A DNA stretch of 14,367 nucleotides from Candidatus Heimdallarchaeota archaeon B3_Heim (GCA_003144275.1 NJBF01000063.1:1-14367); one strand, 5' to 3'. Counted from the first letter of the stretch, positions 1 to 12,080 are shown. Translations and numbers: made by a program. The notes: generated by a model from the letters alone, not told the origin.

Positions 1-126
1 GGCGGTAAGACCTGCATCTGAGCAGGCTCGCGTCGATGAATCAGGAAGAACAGCTCCAAGGACTGTTTGTAATAATTATTCCTAATTATTTTTACCAGTC
101 CTCTTTGGGTAAGTCTTTCAGAACGG
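1..126 (+). mobile_element. IS607-like right end / TnpB omegaRNA scaffold, copy 1 (5' part lies outside the window)
   Basis: 54/59 nt identical to 1677-1735 and 23/23 identical (104-126) to 1770-1792. Carries the tnpB-3'-end-like motif GTAAGACC...TCGATGAATCAGGAA, hairpin CCTGC/GCAGG and a large hairpin at 60-101. Ends in AGAACGG, consistent with IS607 GG ends. Similarity to the other copy stops right after GG. Confidence 0.75.
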
Positions 127-432
127 GCCTAAAGAATCTCCAGAGGTTCCTAATGTAGTAAAGAATTCAATCTTTTGGACTGTTCCTGGGAATTTAATAA
201 ACCGATGAAATATTCCAACATGATACAATCCTTTCTCATAGACCTTATCTTCAATTTTTTGACCTTTGTGTCTTGATTTAGACCAAATTCATTATATCTA
301 ATCTGTTTAAAAGCTAAAAAGAAATATCCTACGAGGAGACTTGCTAAAAAAAAGTTCTCCTATTGTGAATCCACCTACAATTTTTACTTTTTTATCAATA
401 TTATATTTGGAATTATTATCTCTTGAAGTCAC
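127..432 (-). pseudogene. Disrupted SPFH/band-7 (prohibitin-like) membrane protein, N-terminal part, truncated at the element
   Basis: Manual translation from GTG 432, correcting +1 at the A8 run (346-353) and -1 at the T6 run (255-260), gives MTSRDNNSKYNIDKKVKIVGGFTIGELFLASLLVGYFFLAFKQIRYNEFGLNQDTKVKKIEDKVYEKGLYHVGIFHRFIKFPGTVQKIEFFTTLGTSGDSLG. This is a TM helix followed by an SPFH-like 'G-L-Y...I-K-F-P-x-T-V-Q' segment. Family call is by eye. Confidence 0.6.
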
Positions 433-640
433 TGTTCTTCTGAGTATATTTTAATTAATTTCATTTTTAAATCATGGATTCCAGAACCTGAACCTTTAAA
501 ACTGAAAACACAAGAAATAGACTAGTTTCGATGGGGTACAACCAGGGTAATTCAATAAAATGTGTGGTGAGGAAAAAAATATTCCCCCCTCTCAGATCCT
601 ATATTTGGTGTCACAAGGAGATTAGTTGTGGAAATCGTGT

Positions 641-853
641 TTATCTCTGTCTCAGTATCTTAAGCATGGTTCCAGGAGCAATAAATAAAGCGATTAGGAA
701 AAGACCTAATGCAGATAATAGGATACCAATTATAACCAGAAAAAACATGTCTCCAGTTTCAAAAACCACAGTACCAAGATAGATACACCCTACACCAATA
801 ATAAGGCTCAATAAACCTACTAGTAAGAACTTTCCTAAATCTCTTCTGCCCAT
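641..853 (-). CDS. Small hypothetical membrane protein (70 aa, 2 TM helices)
   Basis: Two hydrophobic stretches with basic termini; GAGTGA SD-like motif upstream of the ATG. Confidence 0.7.
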   Translation of the reverse strand: MGRRDLGKFLLVGLLSLIIGVGCIYLGTVVFETGDMFFLVIIGILLSALGLFLIALFIAPGTMLKILRQR

Positions 854-1233
854 AAGATATCACTCTCAAAGGAATAGCTGTAAGAAATGAAACTCTGTAT
901 AAATAATTTGTTATCTAGTTGGAAATCTCAAAGAAAAAGTGAGCGTAAACAACTAGGAGGACATCAATGTATAGATACTAGCCTAATGTTGGTGGAAGTA
1001 TTTTTTATTATAGGAAAATCATTTAGCTTATCTAATGCCAGTTCCATCGACGTTGTTTTAGTTCCTTTGAAGAAATTTTTGGCTCTTTGCCATATTTACG
1101 CTCTAAATAATCATCAGAGTTCGAACGCGATTCATCCATCACGTTTTGGGATTTTTGTTCAGAGGGAACCATACATACTTCAATAAGTTATGTAACATTT
1201 AAATTTCAAAGAGACAGAGGTAGTCGAATACGG

Positions 1234-1792
1234 CCGAATCTGTATATTCTAAGTAAATTTTAGAAAAAGTGTAAGAGAAGAATTAATACAAGTAAGTCTT
1301 GTAATATAAAATTAAGATAAAGAAAAATAGTTTGTGAAATCATGCCTCGAAAAGGGATAGGGGTTGACAATAGTCAATATTTCTGTGGATAAATAGAGAC
1401 AAATATGAACAGATATCCCAGGGAAAAGAGAAGAGAATAAAAGCAATAATGCAAAGGAAAGGGGAAGAGAACAGAAAATATGGGAAAAATAGAGCAGTAG
1501 ACCGAACTCATGAGATGCTGTTTAAAACGAGAAACTATTTGACCTCTTGATCCTGGAATAACAGGAAAAAAGCAACTTTGATTTAGATCAGAGAGTTACA
1601 TAAGTTTAAAAGAAGAAACGCTCCTAATCAATCAGGTCGCCGAGAGTTCCGCGGAGACCTTAAACGCCTGTGGAGAGGCGGTAAGACCTGCATCTAAGCA
1701 GGCATGCGTCTATGAATCAGGAAGAATAGCTCCAAAGATGGTTGGGAATCATTGTTCTTAGCTGTCTTATTTGGGTAAGTCTTTCAGAACGG
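1234..1792 (+). mobile_element. Putative non-autonomous IS607-like element (~560 bp); right end firm, left end tentative
   Basis: Right end identical to copy 1. Candidate left end follows ACGG at 1230-1233. The right-end subterminal 9-mer GTAAGTCTT recurs exactly at 1292-1300, with a 7/9 variant at 1253-1261. No intact transposase or nuclease ORF inside. Confidence 0.4.
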
Positions 1793-1812
1793 TCCAACGG
1801 ATATTACGTGAA
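1634..1812 (+). ncRNA. TnpB-type omegaRNA: ~159-nt scaffold (1634-1792) plus predicted ~20-nt flank-derived guide (1793-1812)
   Basis: Hairpin AGGTC/GACCT (1634-1660). Translates as VAESSAETLNACGEAVRP then SMNQE in a shifted frame, typical of tnpB 3' ends that overlap the omegaRNA. Also a CCTGC/GCAGG hairpin, a 13-bp stem 1736-1748/1755-1767 with 5 G.U pairs, and possible pseudoknot pairing AAGAC with GTCTT. Confidence 0.72.
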
Positions 1813-1905
1813 GAAAAACGTTTCCAAGAGAAAAAAAAACAGGGGAAAAAGTCCTGGCGATTGAGAAAAGATAAATCTGCAAATGATGAAAATCATGAGA
1901 CTTGA
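1792..1905 (+). pseudogene. C-terminal fragment of a small basic, possibly winged-helix protein, interrupted by element copy 2
   Basis: Open 37-codon frame VQRILREEKRFQEKKKQGKKSWRLRKDKSANDENHET*. It begins at the element end and its stop (1903-1905) overlaps the likely tlyA ATG at 1895. Confidence 0.45.
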
Positions 1906-2617
1906 CGAATGGCTTGTTAATAAAGGTTTTATCTCTTCACGATCGAAGGCAAACCGCTTTATCCGAAATAAGGGAGTACGTGTGAATACGAAGCAATGTA
2001 TGAAACCAGCTTACATAGTGAAGAAAACTGATGATATAATATTAGATAAATCAATATTAATTAAATTCACTAATCCACTTGGATATCAAAAACTCGATTT
2101 GTTTGTTAATCAAGCTGAAATTCCTTTTTATCCTAATGATCAAGTTTTAGATATAGGAGCGAGTGCTGGAGGCTTTTGTAAGTATATCCTTGAGCAAAAT
2201 ATCGAATCGCTCTTCGCAATAGAAATTTCTCCCCAATTTAAACCATTTCTTTATTTATTGAAAGATGAGTACCCTAATTTTTCTTACCATATCGGCAATG
2301 TATTTACTCTACCTACACCTCTAACGGAAAAACGGTTCAATCTAGTCACAATAGATCTTACAATCGATCCTATATTTCTCTTAGATAACATCATTAACCT
2401 ATTACTCCTAGTAACATCAAATGAACATCCTGCACGAGTCCTTTGCATTATAAAAATTGAAAACCCAGATGATGCAGATATCATAATTCAAAAATATACC
2501 TCCCATATTAAAAACAGTGTACCTAACCTTCAGAAGTTAATCTTTCTAGATTCACTTCCCGAGAAGAATGAAAAAGCCATGTATGTAGAATTTTGGTCAC
2601 AAATTAGAGAATCTTAA
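1895..2617 (+). CDS. tlyA: TlyA-family RNA methyltransferase (S4 domain + FtsJ/RrmJ-like SAM domain); ORF can extend to 1883
   Basis: N-terminal MRLDEWLVNKG..SRSKA S4 motif and VLDIGASAGGF SAM-binding motif. Candidate catalytic K (QKL), D (TIDL) and K (IIKIE). Confidence 0.85.
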   Translation: MRLDEWLVNKGFISSRSKANRFIRNKGVRVNTKQCMKPAYIVKKTDDIILDKSILIKFTNPLGYQKLDLFVNQAEIPFYPNDQVLDIGASAGGFCKYILEQNIESLFAIEISPQFKPFLYLLKDEYPNFSYHIGNVFTLPTPLTEKRFNLVTIDLTIDPIFLLDNIINLLLLVTSNEHPARVLCIIKIENPDDADIIIQKYTSHIKNSVPNLQKLIFLDSLPEKNEKAMYVEFWSQIRES

Positions 2618-7924: not shown

Positions 7925-10594
7925 TTATTCATTTGATGAAACAAGAATTGAGGGAAAGAGTAATTGAAATTCATTCCCTTTATTTACAAGGGGAAGAATC
8001 TTAAGTTTTCCACCATAATGTTGCATGATTACTGAGCATAATGAGAGACCGATGTAATGGCCTTGATATTCCCAATTATCGGTTATCTTACTTGAAAGCC
8101 GATAACTCACTTCTTCTGAAATCGGGGGAGAGTAGGAATCCTGAATAACAATGCGATAATAAGCAGCGAGCAATCCTCCTTCCATCTTAATGGGGAATTT
8201 TTTAAGGTTTTCTTTTTCACCTGTGATTTGGATGAATTGGAGGATTTCTACTAAAGCAGTCTTCAGATATTTATCACATAATAGGAGTCTATCAAGACTT
8301 GACTTATCAATTGTGATATCGGGTTCTAATTCTGGTATTTCTTTGAATATTTCCGAAATTACATCTAAGATACTATATAAGGATTTAAATTCCTTCACTG
8401 GTGATTGAAGAACATCAAAGATTTTATTAACGGTATCAATAGTTCGAGATGATTGATCAGCTATATTTATTATTTCTTGAATATTTTCAGGATCTATATT
8501 TCCTTCACGTTGCATTTCAAGGCGAATAAAATCTAAATTATTGACGATTTTCTGTAAATCATTGTTTACAAAATGGCTCATCATAGCATGATAGCGTTCT
8601 TCTTCTAATTTTACTTGTTTTAGAAGTCTTTCAGTTCTTTTGCGATCAGATACATCACGAACGAAAGCTAATTCAGCAGGAGAACTTTGATAAGTTGTCA
8701 AGCCTACATTAAGTTCCACTTCTAGCTTAGACCCATCCTTTTTACGTATCAGGGAATCATAAATATTGGGGACATCTTCTCCAGCCATTCGACGACGATA
8801 AAAATCCTCAACCTCAGATATCACATCTTCATGGAGGAAGTTGACAAAATATTTCCCAATTAATTCTGGGATTGAATACCCACTAATTTCTGCCACGCTC
8901 TGGTTAACATAGACAACTTTACTATCTTGGATTATAACAATTCCATCATTTGCTCTCTCAACCAAATTACGATACTGTTCTTCTGACTCTTGTAAGGAAT
9001 ATTCAATAGATTTCTGAATGGTTATGTCTGTAAACACACCAAAAGATCCAACAACTCTTTCATCATCATCTAATAAAACAGTACCAGCTATACGCGTTGT
9101 ACAGGTTGTTCCATCTTTTTTAATCCAAGTTAACTCATACGTAGAGGATAGTGATTTTTTTTCAAATCGTGATTTCACCACTTCTTCAAATTCTTTCCAT
9201 GAATCAGGAGCAAGAAAATCAGTTACTAGTCTCCCCATAAGTTCCTCTTCAGGGTAACCCAACATATTTTCTAACGCATTATTTACAAAAATTGTCCTAT
9301 CTCTACTATCCGTCACCCATACCCCTTCACCCATAGTAGTGATTAAAGTACGAAATCTTTTCTCACTTTCTTCTAATTCTTTACTAATACGTTTTCTTTC
9401 TGAAATATCACGAACAAAAACGAGATCCGCTGGATGATTTTGATATGTAATGATTCCAGCGTTTAATTCAACCTCAATCTTTTCACCATTTGCAAGTACA
9501 AGAGATGTTTCGTAAATTGGAGGGACTGCAATACCCTGCATCCGATCACGATACCTTTGAACAACTTCTTTCATTGCATCAGGATGAATATTTTGCTCGA
9601 AAGGAGTGCCGATAATTTCCTCGATTGGTTGACCTGACATTTTTGCCAATGAAGTATTAAGAAATTTAACAATACCATCTTGAATAATTGCAATTCCGTC
9701 AGTGGCTCTTTCCACTAACGTACGATACTTTTCTTCAGACTCTACGAGAGCTTGATTTGCTTCAATAATGTTGGTGATATCACTTGCAAAAACAGCAATC
9801 CTTACGACTTCATTTTGATTGTTTAGTATCGGATAAATCCAATTTTCAAAAACTATTCCGTTTCGACTATCACTGAATCGGATTGGAACCTTTTTAATTA
9901 TTGCTTCATTAATAAATTTCTCCCGATTCTCACGTACCATAGGAGAAAAGTATTCATAGATGCTTGTACCTATCATCCTATCCACGGTTCCCCCAAGCCG
10001 TTTTGCAGCCACTTCATTGAGAGTGATTATTTTACAATTTTTTTCCAAAAGTAAAGATGATTCAGGAGAGACACTAAGTAAGGAATCAATGTCAGTTAAG
10101 GCTCGTTCATGCGCAGAAAGAAATTCATCTTTACCAATCAGAGATTCAACAATTGTAAGAATATATTGAGGGATTTCATTGACTATGAGAGGGATTTTTC
10201 TAATTATGGAATGAAATTCCTTCCCGTGAAAAATGGTTACCTCTTCATTAGTGATAGGTGCACCTGTTGAAAAAACAGCCTGATAATCGTTACGGGCCGA
10301 TTCAGATAAGAAATTCAAAGCGTCAAAGATCGATTTATCAAGTACGTTTGGATCAACTGAAAATTCTTCCAGCATTTGGGTGTAAGCACCATTGATTGCA
10401 ATAAATACAAAATTTGTATCAATTATTTGCATAGGTTTGTCTATCGAATCTAGAATCTCTTTGAAATAAACCTTCAATGGTTCCGAACTATCTGTTACGG
10501 GCCTTAATTGTGTGAATTCTTCTCGAATGGCATCTTTAACATCCTCGGGGACATCATCTCGTGATAATATTGATTCCAATTTCATATTGTTCAC
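7925..10594 (-). CDS. Cytoplasmic multi-PAS (5 PAS) histidine-kinase-like protein with a degenerate HATPase domain
   Basis: Repeated PAS/PAC units (SEEKYRTLVE...VRDISERKR and similar), H-box SHFVNNDLQ and terminal IGLSLCSVIMQHYGG..GNEF. Start is GTG 10594 or ATG 10585. Confidence 0.88.
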   Translation of the reverse strand: MNNMKLESILSRDDVPEDVKDAIREEFTQLRPVTDSSEPLKVYFKEILDSIDKPMQIIDTNFVFIAINGAYTQMLEEFSVDPNVLDKSIFDALNFLSESARNDYQAVFSTGAPITNEEVTIFHGKEFHSIIRKIPLIVNEIPQYILTIVESLIGKDEFLSAHERALTDIDSLLSVSPESSLLLEKNCKIITLNEVAAKRLGGTVDRMIGTSIYEYFSPMVRENREKFINEAIIKKVPIRFSDSRNGIVFENWIYPILNNQNEVVRIAVFASDITNIIEANQALVESEEKYRTLVERATDGIAIIQDGIVKFLNTSLAKMSGQPIEEIIGTPFEQNIHPDAMKEVVQRYRDRMQGIAVPPIYETSLVLANGEKIEVELNAGIITYQNHPADLVFVRDISERKRISKELEESEKRFRTLITTMGEGVWVTDSRDRTIFVNNALENMLGYPEEELMGRLVTDFLAPDSWKEFEEVVKSRFEKKSLSSTYELTWIKKDGTTCTTRIAGTVLLDDDERVVGSFGVFTDITIQKSIEYSLQESEEQYRNLVERANDGIVIIQDSKVVYVNQSVAEISGYSIPELIGKYFVNFLHEDVISEVEDFYRRRMAGEDVPNIYDSLIRKKDGSKLEVELNVGLTTYQSSPAELAFVRDVSDRKRTERLLKQVKLEEERYHAMMSHFVNNDLQKIVNNLDFIRLEMQREGNIDPENIQEIINIADQSSRTIDTVNKIFDVLQSPVKEFKSLYSILDVISEIFKEIPELEPDITIDKSSLDRLLLCDKYLKTALVEILQFIQITGEKENLKKFPIKMEGGLLAAYYRIVIQDSYSPPISEEVSYRLSSKITDNWEYQGHYIGLSLCSVIMQHYGGKLKILPLVNKGNEFQLLFPSILVSSNE

Positions 10595-11381: not shown

Positions 11382-12080
11382 ATGCCAAAAACAAAAATTA
11401 TAACTCAATTAGCGAAACAATTTCAATTGTCAGAGGAAGACCCATTATTTAACTCTGCTATCTATCCAAAATCATGTGGTGGTGGAGAAGAGTTTAAATA
11501 TTTGGCATTATATGGTGATGCTATTCTCAATTTACTACTTCTCGAAAATATATCAAGAAATGGAAGAATGAATTCAGGCCATATTACCGTAGCCCTTCAT
11601 TCATTCCATAATGACGATACTTTGTACCATATTTCCAAGAATCTAAGAATTCAAGAGGTAATGGAAGGACAATACAAAACAACTTCTATGACAAAAAATG
11701 ATCTAAAGGAAAGCGTTGAGGCATTATTAGGAGCAACCTATCAAAAAAATGGTTTAGAATCCTGTAAAGAAATAGTTACTAATCTTGTTCAAATAGCAAT
11801 AGAAAAAAATTTCCTTAATCCTAACCCAAAAGGAATTCTTCAAGTCATTTTCCAAAAGAAAAACCTTACAATCCCTCAGTATGAATCCACTCGAGTAGGC
11901 GGACCTGATCATCAGCAATTATTCCAGTGTACTGTTACAGGAAAGGATGAAGGAAAAAACTACAAACACCAAAGTGATATCTTTACAAGTAAGAAAGAGG
12001 CAGAAAAAGACGCAGCAAAAAAATTTTTGGCTGAATTAGGGGAACTAAAATTATTAGAGAATTCATTCTTCAGAGTTTGA
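11382..12080 (+). CDS. rnc: Ribonuclease III family protein with C-terminal dsRBD
   Basis: LALYGDAIL signature variant and KESVEALLGA. dsRBD motifs NPKGILQ, GGPDH and SKKEAEKDAA. Confidence 0.85.
   Translation: MPKTKIITQLAKQFQLSEEDPLFNSAIYPKSCGGGEEFKYLALYGDAILNLLLLENISRNGRMNSGHITVALHSFHNDDTLYHISKNLRIQEVMEGQYKTTSMTKNDLKESVEALLGATYQKNGLESCKEIVTNLVQIAIEKNFLNPNPKGILQVIFQKKNLTIPQYESTRVGGPDHQQLFQCTVTGKDEGKNYKHQSDIFTSKKEAEKDAAKKFLAELGELKLLENSFFRV

Follow-up and report, generated by a model that had tools for sequence, protein, structure and literature searches.

Two repeats in an Asgard archaeal contig as probable right ends of one tnpA-less IS607-type TnpB family, one of them closing a gene-less mini-transposon

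Near the start of contig C68 of Candidatus Heimdallarchaeota archaeon B3_Heim stand two copies of one sequence, and the question raised by this locus is what kind of element the copies belong to and whether they act together. The window that we analysed is the entire contig (14,367 nucleotides) of an assembly, G000, that comprises 3.95 Mb in 103 contigs and is 94% complete. The two copies lie on the same strand at 1-126 and 1677-1792, are 84-85% identical with a single 10-nucleotide (nt) indel, share the terminus ...GGGTAAGTCTTTCAGAACGG (also given ...TTTCAGAACGG) at 126 in copy 1 and 1792 in copy 2, and are followed by unrelated flanks (GCCTAAAGAATCTCCAGAGG and TCCAACGGATATTACGTGAA, respectively). 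A reading made without database searches, here called the sequence-only reading, had taken them for TnpB omegaRNA modules at IS607-type right ends and had proposed guide-RNA cassettes that are served in trans and form a dispersed multi-guide system in a probable archaeon. We conclude that both repeats are very probably right ends of one tnpA-less IS607-type TnpB insertion sequence family in an Asgard host, one belonging to a mini-element and the other to a full-length-type element. The archaeal origin was confirmed: the 16S is archaeal, relatives carry the labels Candidatus Hodarchaeota or Heimdallarchaeota, and the genome is a Hodarchaeota/Heimdallarchaeota-type metagenome-assembled genome of an Asgard archaeon.

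A repeat search of the window recovered the pair as two segments, 1-84 versus 1677-1760 (85%) and 85-129 versus 1751-1795 (84%), which are one repeat with the 10-nt indel; BLAST of copy 1 against copy 2 gave an E value of 7e-27, far above chance. The pair, the end of its similarity at AGAACGG and the unrelated flanks were thus as originally quoted. Across G000, both BLAST and a covariance model (R1, see below) found 19 right ends, and similarity stopped at an identical AACGG in all 19. Six of them stand behind an intact tnpB and 3 of the tnpB-linked kind, copy 1 included, are cut by contig ends; among the unlinked ones, 6 are gene-less mini-elements that are complete and fall into four deletion lineages, 2 are mini-type junctions cut by contig ends, and 2 are without a detectable left end. 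Many G000 contigs break within family copies (C68:1, C100:31970, C59:2, C61:3, C25:24305, C24:1 and C62:15228), and therefore copy numbers and tnpB linkage are lower bounds. The gene-less lineages, at least four, differ in their deletions: the window type, the C54/C64/C24/C62 type, the C101 type and the C82/C96 'mini' type. The 2 right-end/omegaRNA copies at C93:25251-25418 (141 bits) and C92:279-454 (35 bits), for which a search of the upstream sequence found no left end and which have no detectable tnpB upstream, may be truly orphaned or decayed.

The repeat spans the final ~46 codons of tnpB plus 44 nt, and we identify it as a TnpB omegaRNA module, as the sequence-only reading had it, because at other loci of the genome this sequence overlaps intact tnpB genes at their 3' ends. 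Six right ends lie 44 nt behind intact open reading frames (ORFs) of ~426 amino acids (aa; a few differ slightly in length), so that TnpB is indeed encoded elsewhere, in six intact copies. In Pfam the ORFs match HTH_OrfB_IS605, OrfB_IS605 and Cas12f1-like_TNB, and the full copies belong to NCBIfam guided_TnpB (262 bits for the family protein, cut-off 100). The family protein can be aligned with ISDra2 TnpB over its full length (E 2e-47); in this alignment D199/E283/D365 correspond to RuvC residues D191/E278/D361 of ISDra2 and a CxxC...CxxC zinc finger is present, and the D/E/D residues and the zinc finger are kept in 6/6 intact copies. ISDra2 TnpB scores 165 bits against it, whereas L79, a TnpB-like protein of mimivirus, reaches 39 bits. 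Judged by these comparisons, the protein is a typical ISDra2-like TnpB and not Fanzor-like, and the link to Fanzor that had been drawn finds no support here. The window itself holds nothing more of TnpB than its final 27 codons in copy 1 and a relic in copy 2. A full element is ~1.63-1.65 kb long; it opens with a left end of ~270 nt that includes a promoter-like TATA box and continues with a 426-aa, RuvC-intact TnpB, and its omegaRNA scaffold overlaps the final ~46 tnpB codons and extends to the right end ...CAGAACGG.

To delimit copy 2, we compared alleles with and without it. In the sister species (G013), the base corresponding to window 1364 abuts that corresponding to 1791 with a 3-nt overlap, between flanks that are 93-97% identical; with slashes marking junctions, the filled sequence ATAGGGG/TTGAC...CAGAACGG/TCCAACGG is replaced there by ...GGGAAAGGGG/TCCAACGGATATTACGTGAAG, reading AAAGGGG/TCCAACGGATATTACGTGAAG. 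The precise empty joint AGGGG/TCCAACGG... is found in the sister species and in two metagenomes, without target duplication, and metagenome contigs from two studies join 1361 to 1791 and skip 429 nt. Three further relatives (G020, G003 and G018) are also empty at this point, and the pre-insertion sequence is AAAGGGG in G013, G003 and G018 and AAAGGTG in G020. The comparison of filled and empty alleles thus defines an element of 429 bp (1364-1792) without target duplication. Furthermore, alignments of 10 to 11 left ends showed that the homology of copy 2 reaches back to ...GGGG/TTGACAATAG at 1364, and not merely to 1634 as had been supposed. Upstream of copy 2 there is no ORF of at least 50 aa that resembles TnpB or TnpA, as originally noted, and what is left of tnpB is a relic of the final ~46 codons (1621-1758, relic stop at 1759-1761; 72% to TnpB residues 381-426 by tblastn). 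By sequence, copy 2 is an internally deleted element that keeps a left end and a complete omegaRNA scaffold: a complete mobile mini-transposon rather than a bare right end or cassette. Possession of both insertion sequence ends, lack of an ORF, several copies and insertion polymorphism place it among elements resembling miniature inverted-repeat or palindrome-associated transposable elements (MITE/PATE-like). At least 6 complete gene-less copies are present in G000, and copies 93-94% identical to the mini-element occupy two other loci in G013.

Copy 1 has a different makeup. Its bases 2-82 encode TnpB residues ~400-426 in a frame kept to the stop at 83-85 (96% aa identity to residues 400-424 by tblastn), and its identity is 93.7% with the right ends of the intact elements of C96, C82 and C61 and 78-85% with mini-elements. 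On its minus strand, the flank at 127-435 codes for residues 1-104 of a Band-7/SPFH protein, of which three relatives have an intact version of 330 aa; the remainder (residues 99-328) is found at C100:31712-31023. Contig C100 ends in ...TTTAAGGG/TTGTTAAC..., where a left end (C100:31714-31970) is 89-90% identical to full-length left ends. The junctions of the element are TTTAAGGG/...AACGG/GCC, and the reconstructed empty site, TTTAAGGG/GCCTAAAG, compares with TTTAACGG/TCCCAAAG of the intact gene in relatives. Because copy 1 is closest to full-length right ends, has its left end on C100 and splits the Band-7/SPFH gene, sequence comparison identifies it as the right end of an element of the full-length type, the body of which is lost in an assembly gap. 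The proposal that at least one of the two copies is without nuclease or transposase thus holds for copy 2 and does not extend to copy 1, given that gap. A second proposal, that the tandem right ends could mobilise the intervening ~1.6 kb, finds no support: both right ends come with left ends of their own, and the stretch 585-1363 is host DNA that shows synteny in relatives lacking the mini-element. On the Band-7 side, upstream of 585, G013:C176 loses synteny with window 127-584, and no element sequence is found there.

The element ends agree with the IS607-type assignment made by the sequence-only reading. RGGG precedes 11/11 left-end junctions in G000, and GG, the IS607 core, is found at each of the two junctions and a single time in the empty site, without target duplication, as in copy 2 (filled ATAGGGG/TTGAC...AACGG/TCC versus empty AAAGGGG/TCC). 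The same rule is obeyed by a natural nested insertion of a full element into a mini-element (C96:23420-25300, minus strand), which can be read against an intact mini-element (C82:8636-9094) as GTAGGG/TTG...AACGG/TTTG versus GTAGGGG/TTAATG. The predicted guide of the nested element, TTTGATGATTTTATAAAGAA, matches the empty C82 paralogue beside GTAGGG except for two mismatches proximal to the target-adjacent motif (TAM), and the paralogue is therefore a near-target in the same genome. Among 80 related tnpB loci (TnpB identity 41-96%), a ~190-aa IS607 TnpA directly abuts tnpB upstream in 23 (identity 42-51%), and no other upstream gene recurs; the upstream TnpA of relatives scores 214 and 179 bits with NF033518 (cut-off 110). 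Within the genus, fragments of a decayed tnpA precede a tnpB that is 62% identical. The serine-recombinase TnpA expected of an IS607 element, with an N-terminal HTH and a resolvase domain, is thus found within these 23 related loci and within no G000 copy, and a cognate intact tnpA-tnpB pair such as the sequence-only reading called for is missing from G000, which has neither IS607 nor Y1 tnpA. The sole resolvase (on C2) reaches 28.8 bits with NF033518 and is an invertase/resolvase-type protein rather than an IS607 TnpA. Intact IS607 tnpA genes do occur in 5 of the 22 genus genomes checked (G012, G016, G004, G007 and G013); they adjoin unrelated tnpB lineages (~30% identity, partial) and were rejected as cognate partners. 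Since the defining tnpA is absent from G000, the family is non-autonomous, and the evidence supports IS607-derived, non-autonomous derivatives rather than canonical IS607 elements.

We then considered the RNA. In the 17 complete copies aligned, conservation sets in ~115 nt inside tnpB and continues through to AACGG, and the alignment yields a consensus fold of seven helices; the scaffold of copy 2 folded as a single sequence has z = -2.8. R1, the covariance model built from this alignment, recovers this RNA downstream of tnpB in further Asgard lineages and also matches one bacterial (Omnitrophota) IS607 locus. In a wider set of 33 distinct sequences, drawn from several Asgard lineages and this one bacterial phylum, 92% of cells were paired versus 79% in shuffles, and compensatory changes were present in 23/35 pairs; the observed values were reached by 0/500 shuffles, and slid controls were at most 51% paired. 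The covariance analysis that had been suggested as a check thus bears out a covarying structure. Compensatory changes are seen inside gene-less lineages as well (CCUGU/ACAGG and CCGGC/GCCGG versus CCUGC/GCAGG), gene-less copies score 181-206 bits with R1 and tnpB-linked copies 188-218 bits, and all four gene-less lineages retain the whole ~158-170-nt scaffold from GTCGCCGAG together with a TATA-like block. That these lineages keep the whole scaffold with compensatory stem changes argues for continuing selection on its RNA. All left ends conserve the TATA-like block, which in copy 2 reads TTTAAAAG (1605-1612) and stands 23 nt ahead of the first scaffold base; in the C82/C96 'mini' type it reads TTTATAAA, 22 nt before the scaffold, and in the C54 type the distance is 43 nt. 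The spacing in copy 2 fits archaeal promoter geometry, and the tnpB promoter may therefore now drive the scaffold directly. Searches of the window against Rfam (gathering thresholds) and with ARAGORN gave no match. No RNA dataset was found listed for the locus, and one run labelled 'RNA?', probably DNA, contributed a single 162-nt contig over 1532-1693 that was not used as evidence.

The predicted guides differ among copies, as they do between the two copies in the window, and in a genome search each matched its own flank alone; that of copy 2 had no other good match, and no second genomic target with a TAM was found in G000 for the predicted guides. The C24 guide matches a site on C44 at 19/20 positions; this site has neither RGGG upstream nor extended homology, and the match was taken as chance. 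In the G013 empty allele, AAAGGGG/TCCAACGGATATTACGTGAA, the 3' flank of copy 2 matches the target beside the candidate TAM without a difference, consistent with the 3' flank serving as the RNA guide.

Table 1. Features of the window that bear on the two copies, with neighbouring host genes
Feature	Position	Strand	Details
Copy 2, gene-less mini-transposon (MITE/PATE-like)	1364-1792	+	429 bp; boundaries slide by the shared GG only
Target-site/TAM-like motif AGGGG	1359-1363	+	Directly 5' of the mini-element; last GG is the putative shared recombination core
Mini-element left end	1364-1634	+	271 nt; homologous to full-element left end plus tnpB 5' leader
Copy-2 omegaRNA scaffold	1635-1792	+	~158 nt, ends AACGG; R1 194.7 bits over 1625-1792
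Copy-2 predicted guide	1793-1812	+	TCCAACGGATATTACGTGAA; the empty allele has the identical sequence after AGGGG
Copy 1, right end (3' part of omegaRNA scaffold)	1-126	+	Truncated by contig start; R1 match 32-119
Copy-1 predicted guide	127-146	+	GCCTAAAGAATCTCCAGAGG; similarity among all copies stops at 126
Band-7/SPFH gene, 5' part (aa 1-104)	121-435	-	tblastn of the intact 330-aa G020 orthologue; Pfam Band_7 91.9 bits
Downstream host gene, S4 + FtsJ TlyA-like RNA methyltransferase	1883-2617	+	Pfam S4 50 bits, FtsJ 27.6 bits

Several observations weigh against our reading. The family protein scores higher with NCBIfam IS200_TnpB (271 bits) than with IS607_TnpB (224 bits), both below their cut-offs; the alignment used for covariation had been made to fit R1, a circumstance that biases it towards the structure; and no IS607 tnpA was found in the 94%-complete assembly despite 19 element ends, so that the family may be immobile here now. 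We infer, moreover, the expression, RNA ends and TnpB loading of the omegaRNA, as well as the presence of tnpB within the gap between C100 and the window. The first of these points would suit an IS200/IS605 family mobilised by Y1 'peel-and-paste', with RGGG as a target/TAM of the Y1 type that a DNA guide in the left end would read. Among solved natural structures the closest, ISDra2 TnpB, is likewise of an IS200/IS605 protein, and duplication-free insertion 3' of a short motif suits both families. However, a search for the Y1 transposase (PF01797) found no match in G000 and none upstream of the 80 related tnpB loci, where the sole recurrent gene is the IS607 serine transposase; GG stands at both junctions and once in empty sites; the NGGG motif agrees with a characterised IS607 element; and the conserved subterminal hairpins that an IS200/IS605 element should show at its left and right ends were not consistently seen at the left end, judged by eye only. 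We therefore regard this assignment as very unlikely and retain the IS607-type family.

What the mini-elements do is a separate matter. Both copies went in at a precise point immediately 3' of RGGG, with no duplication of the target and with the last GG of the motif as the crossover core. In the mechanism that we propose, a serine-recombinase TnpA supplied in trans would cut and paste the elements at GG; the left-end promoter would transcribe the scaffold with ~16-20 nt of flank; TnpB from the six or more intact copies would load the mini-element RNA and cut the empty allele, where RGGG adjoins a guide match, and recombinational repair would then restore the element. The mini-element would thereby parasitise the TnpB-bearing copies. 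Tentatively, and short of considering it probable, we suggest that the gene-less mini-elements function as guide-RNA genes in their own right, in which the TATA-like box, brought by the internal deletion to ~23 nt upstream, would start the transcript at the omegaRNA 5' end with no mRNA left for TnpB to process, and that ~10 loci may draw on TnpB from ~9 tnpB-bearing copies to protect their own insertions. If so, they would form a parasite-of-a-parasite layer, maintained by selection on RNA structure, in an Asgard genome without a resident transposase. It could be instead that the omegaRNA part is a dead relic, kept for the right-end DNA that the transposase needs, with no RNA made or loaded. 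Mini-elements require transposase-binding ends in any case, no RNA evidence was found for the omegaRNA, the family may be decaying in a genome without tnpA, and the C92 copy is degenerate (34.6 bits with R1). Yet at least four differently deleted lineages retain the whole scaffold and the TATA-like block, the stems of gene-less copies are kept by compensatory changes and their R1 scores lie near those of tnpB-linked copies, which makes a relic unlikely. Scarcely credible is the host-level dispersed multi-guide system of orphan cassettes, with tandem right ends that mobilise the intervening 1.6 kb. About 10 of the 19 omegaRNA modules are indeed unlinked to tnpB, and their guides are all different; but each guide targets its own empty site, 6 unlinked modules are complete transposons with left ends of their own and 2 more are cut by contig ends, which leaves C93 and C92 without a detectable left end. 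Bases 585-1363 between the copies are, besides, host sequence conserved in relatives, and copy 1 pairs with the C100 left end, not with anything carrying 127-1792. Because each predicted guide matches its own flank only, we prefer to a host multi-guide system the published homing model, in which TnpB cleaves the vacated site (TAM plus guide match) and the element is restored by repair.

Comparison with known systems places the locus as a clear new example of an already known kind of element, not a new kind of system. For the Y1 type, mini-elements that have no gene, carry an omegaRNA and depend on TnpB in trans have already been proposed (Meers 2023, PMC10055086), and the PATE-like IS200/IS605 elements of Geobacillus stearothermophilus (PMC10055086) resemble the present ones in being gene-less, in keeping both ends and the omegaRNA, and in their proposed reliance on TnpB and TnpA in trans. 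Those elements, however, belong to the Y1 family with hairpin ends, whereas here the ends are IS607-type with GG and the deletion sets the TATA-like box 23 nt before the scaffold start. Elements of the IS607 family with tnpB are best characterised in the CboIStron of Clostridium botulinum, with CboTnpA_S and CboTnpB, which for integration and as TAM, respectively, both use 5'-TGGG with an obligatory GG core (bioRxiv 10.1101/2023.11.20.567912). That system and the present family share the GG core, precise duplication-free insertion, an NGGG target/TAM (RGGG here, TGGG there) and an omegaRNA that ends at the right-end boundary and takes its guide from the flank. They differ in that here tnpA is missing from every copy and from the whole of G000 (the 'IS1341-like' state, with tnpB only), a group I intron is absent, and the host is an Asgard archaeon whose element is known from sequence alone. 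A further shared trait is the NF033518 TnpA that relatives of the present tnpB have directly upstream; tnpB-only elements and a polyphyletic association with tnpA are documented (PMC10691335). ISDra2 TnpB (PDB 8EXA/8BF8/8H1J) is alike in its RuvC D/E/D residues, its zinc finger and an omegaRNA overlapping the tnpB 3' end, but ISDra2 is mobilised by a Y1 TnpA, has a TTGAT TAM, and its omegaRNA is unrelated in sequence.

The locus thus indicates that gene-less omegaRNA-bearing mini-elements, described for the bacterial Y1 type, exist for the serine-recombinase type in archaea. Filled and empty alleles and a nested insertion document the behaviour of an IS607-type TnpB family in Hodarchaeota-type Asgard archaea, and four independent deletions delimit a minimal omegaRNA scaffold of ~160 nt. 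Exact boundaries, a candidate RGGG TAM and six intact nucleases are enough for the design of a cleavage test.

As to the surroundings, the methyltransferase gene begins 91 nt past the mini-element, is co-oriented with it and is syntenic in relatives without the insertion; it is context and not part of the element. Read-through from the mini-element promoter could alter the expression of this S4/FtsJ gene. Farther along the window, an 87-nt direct repeat (8904-8990 and 9657-9743, 75% identity) lies inside an 889-aa multi-PAS-domain ORF (7925-10594, minus strand); it stems from the repeated PAS domains and is no mobile element. At 11382-12080 on the plus strand, the window encodes an RNase III-like protein with Ribonuclease_3 and dsrm domains.

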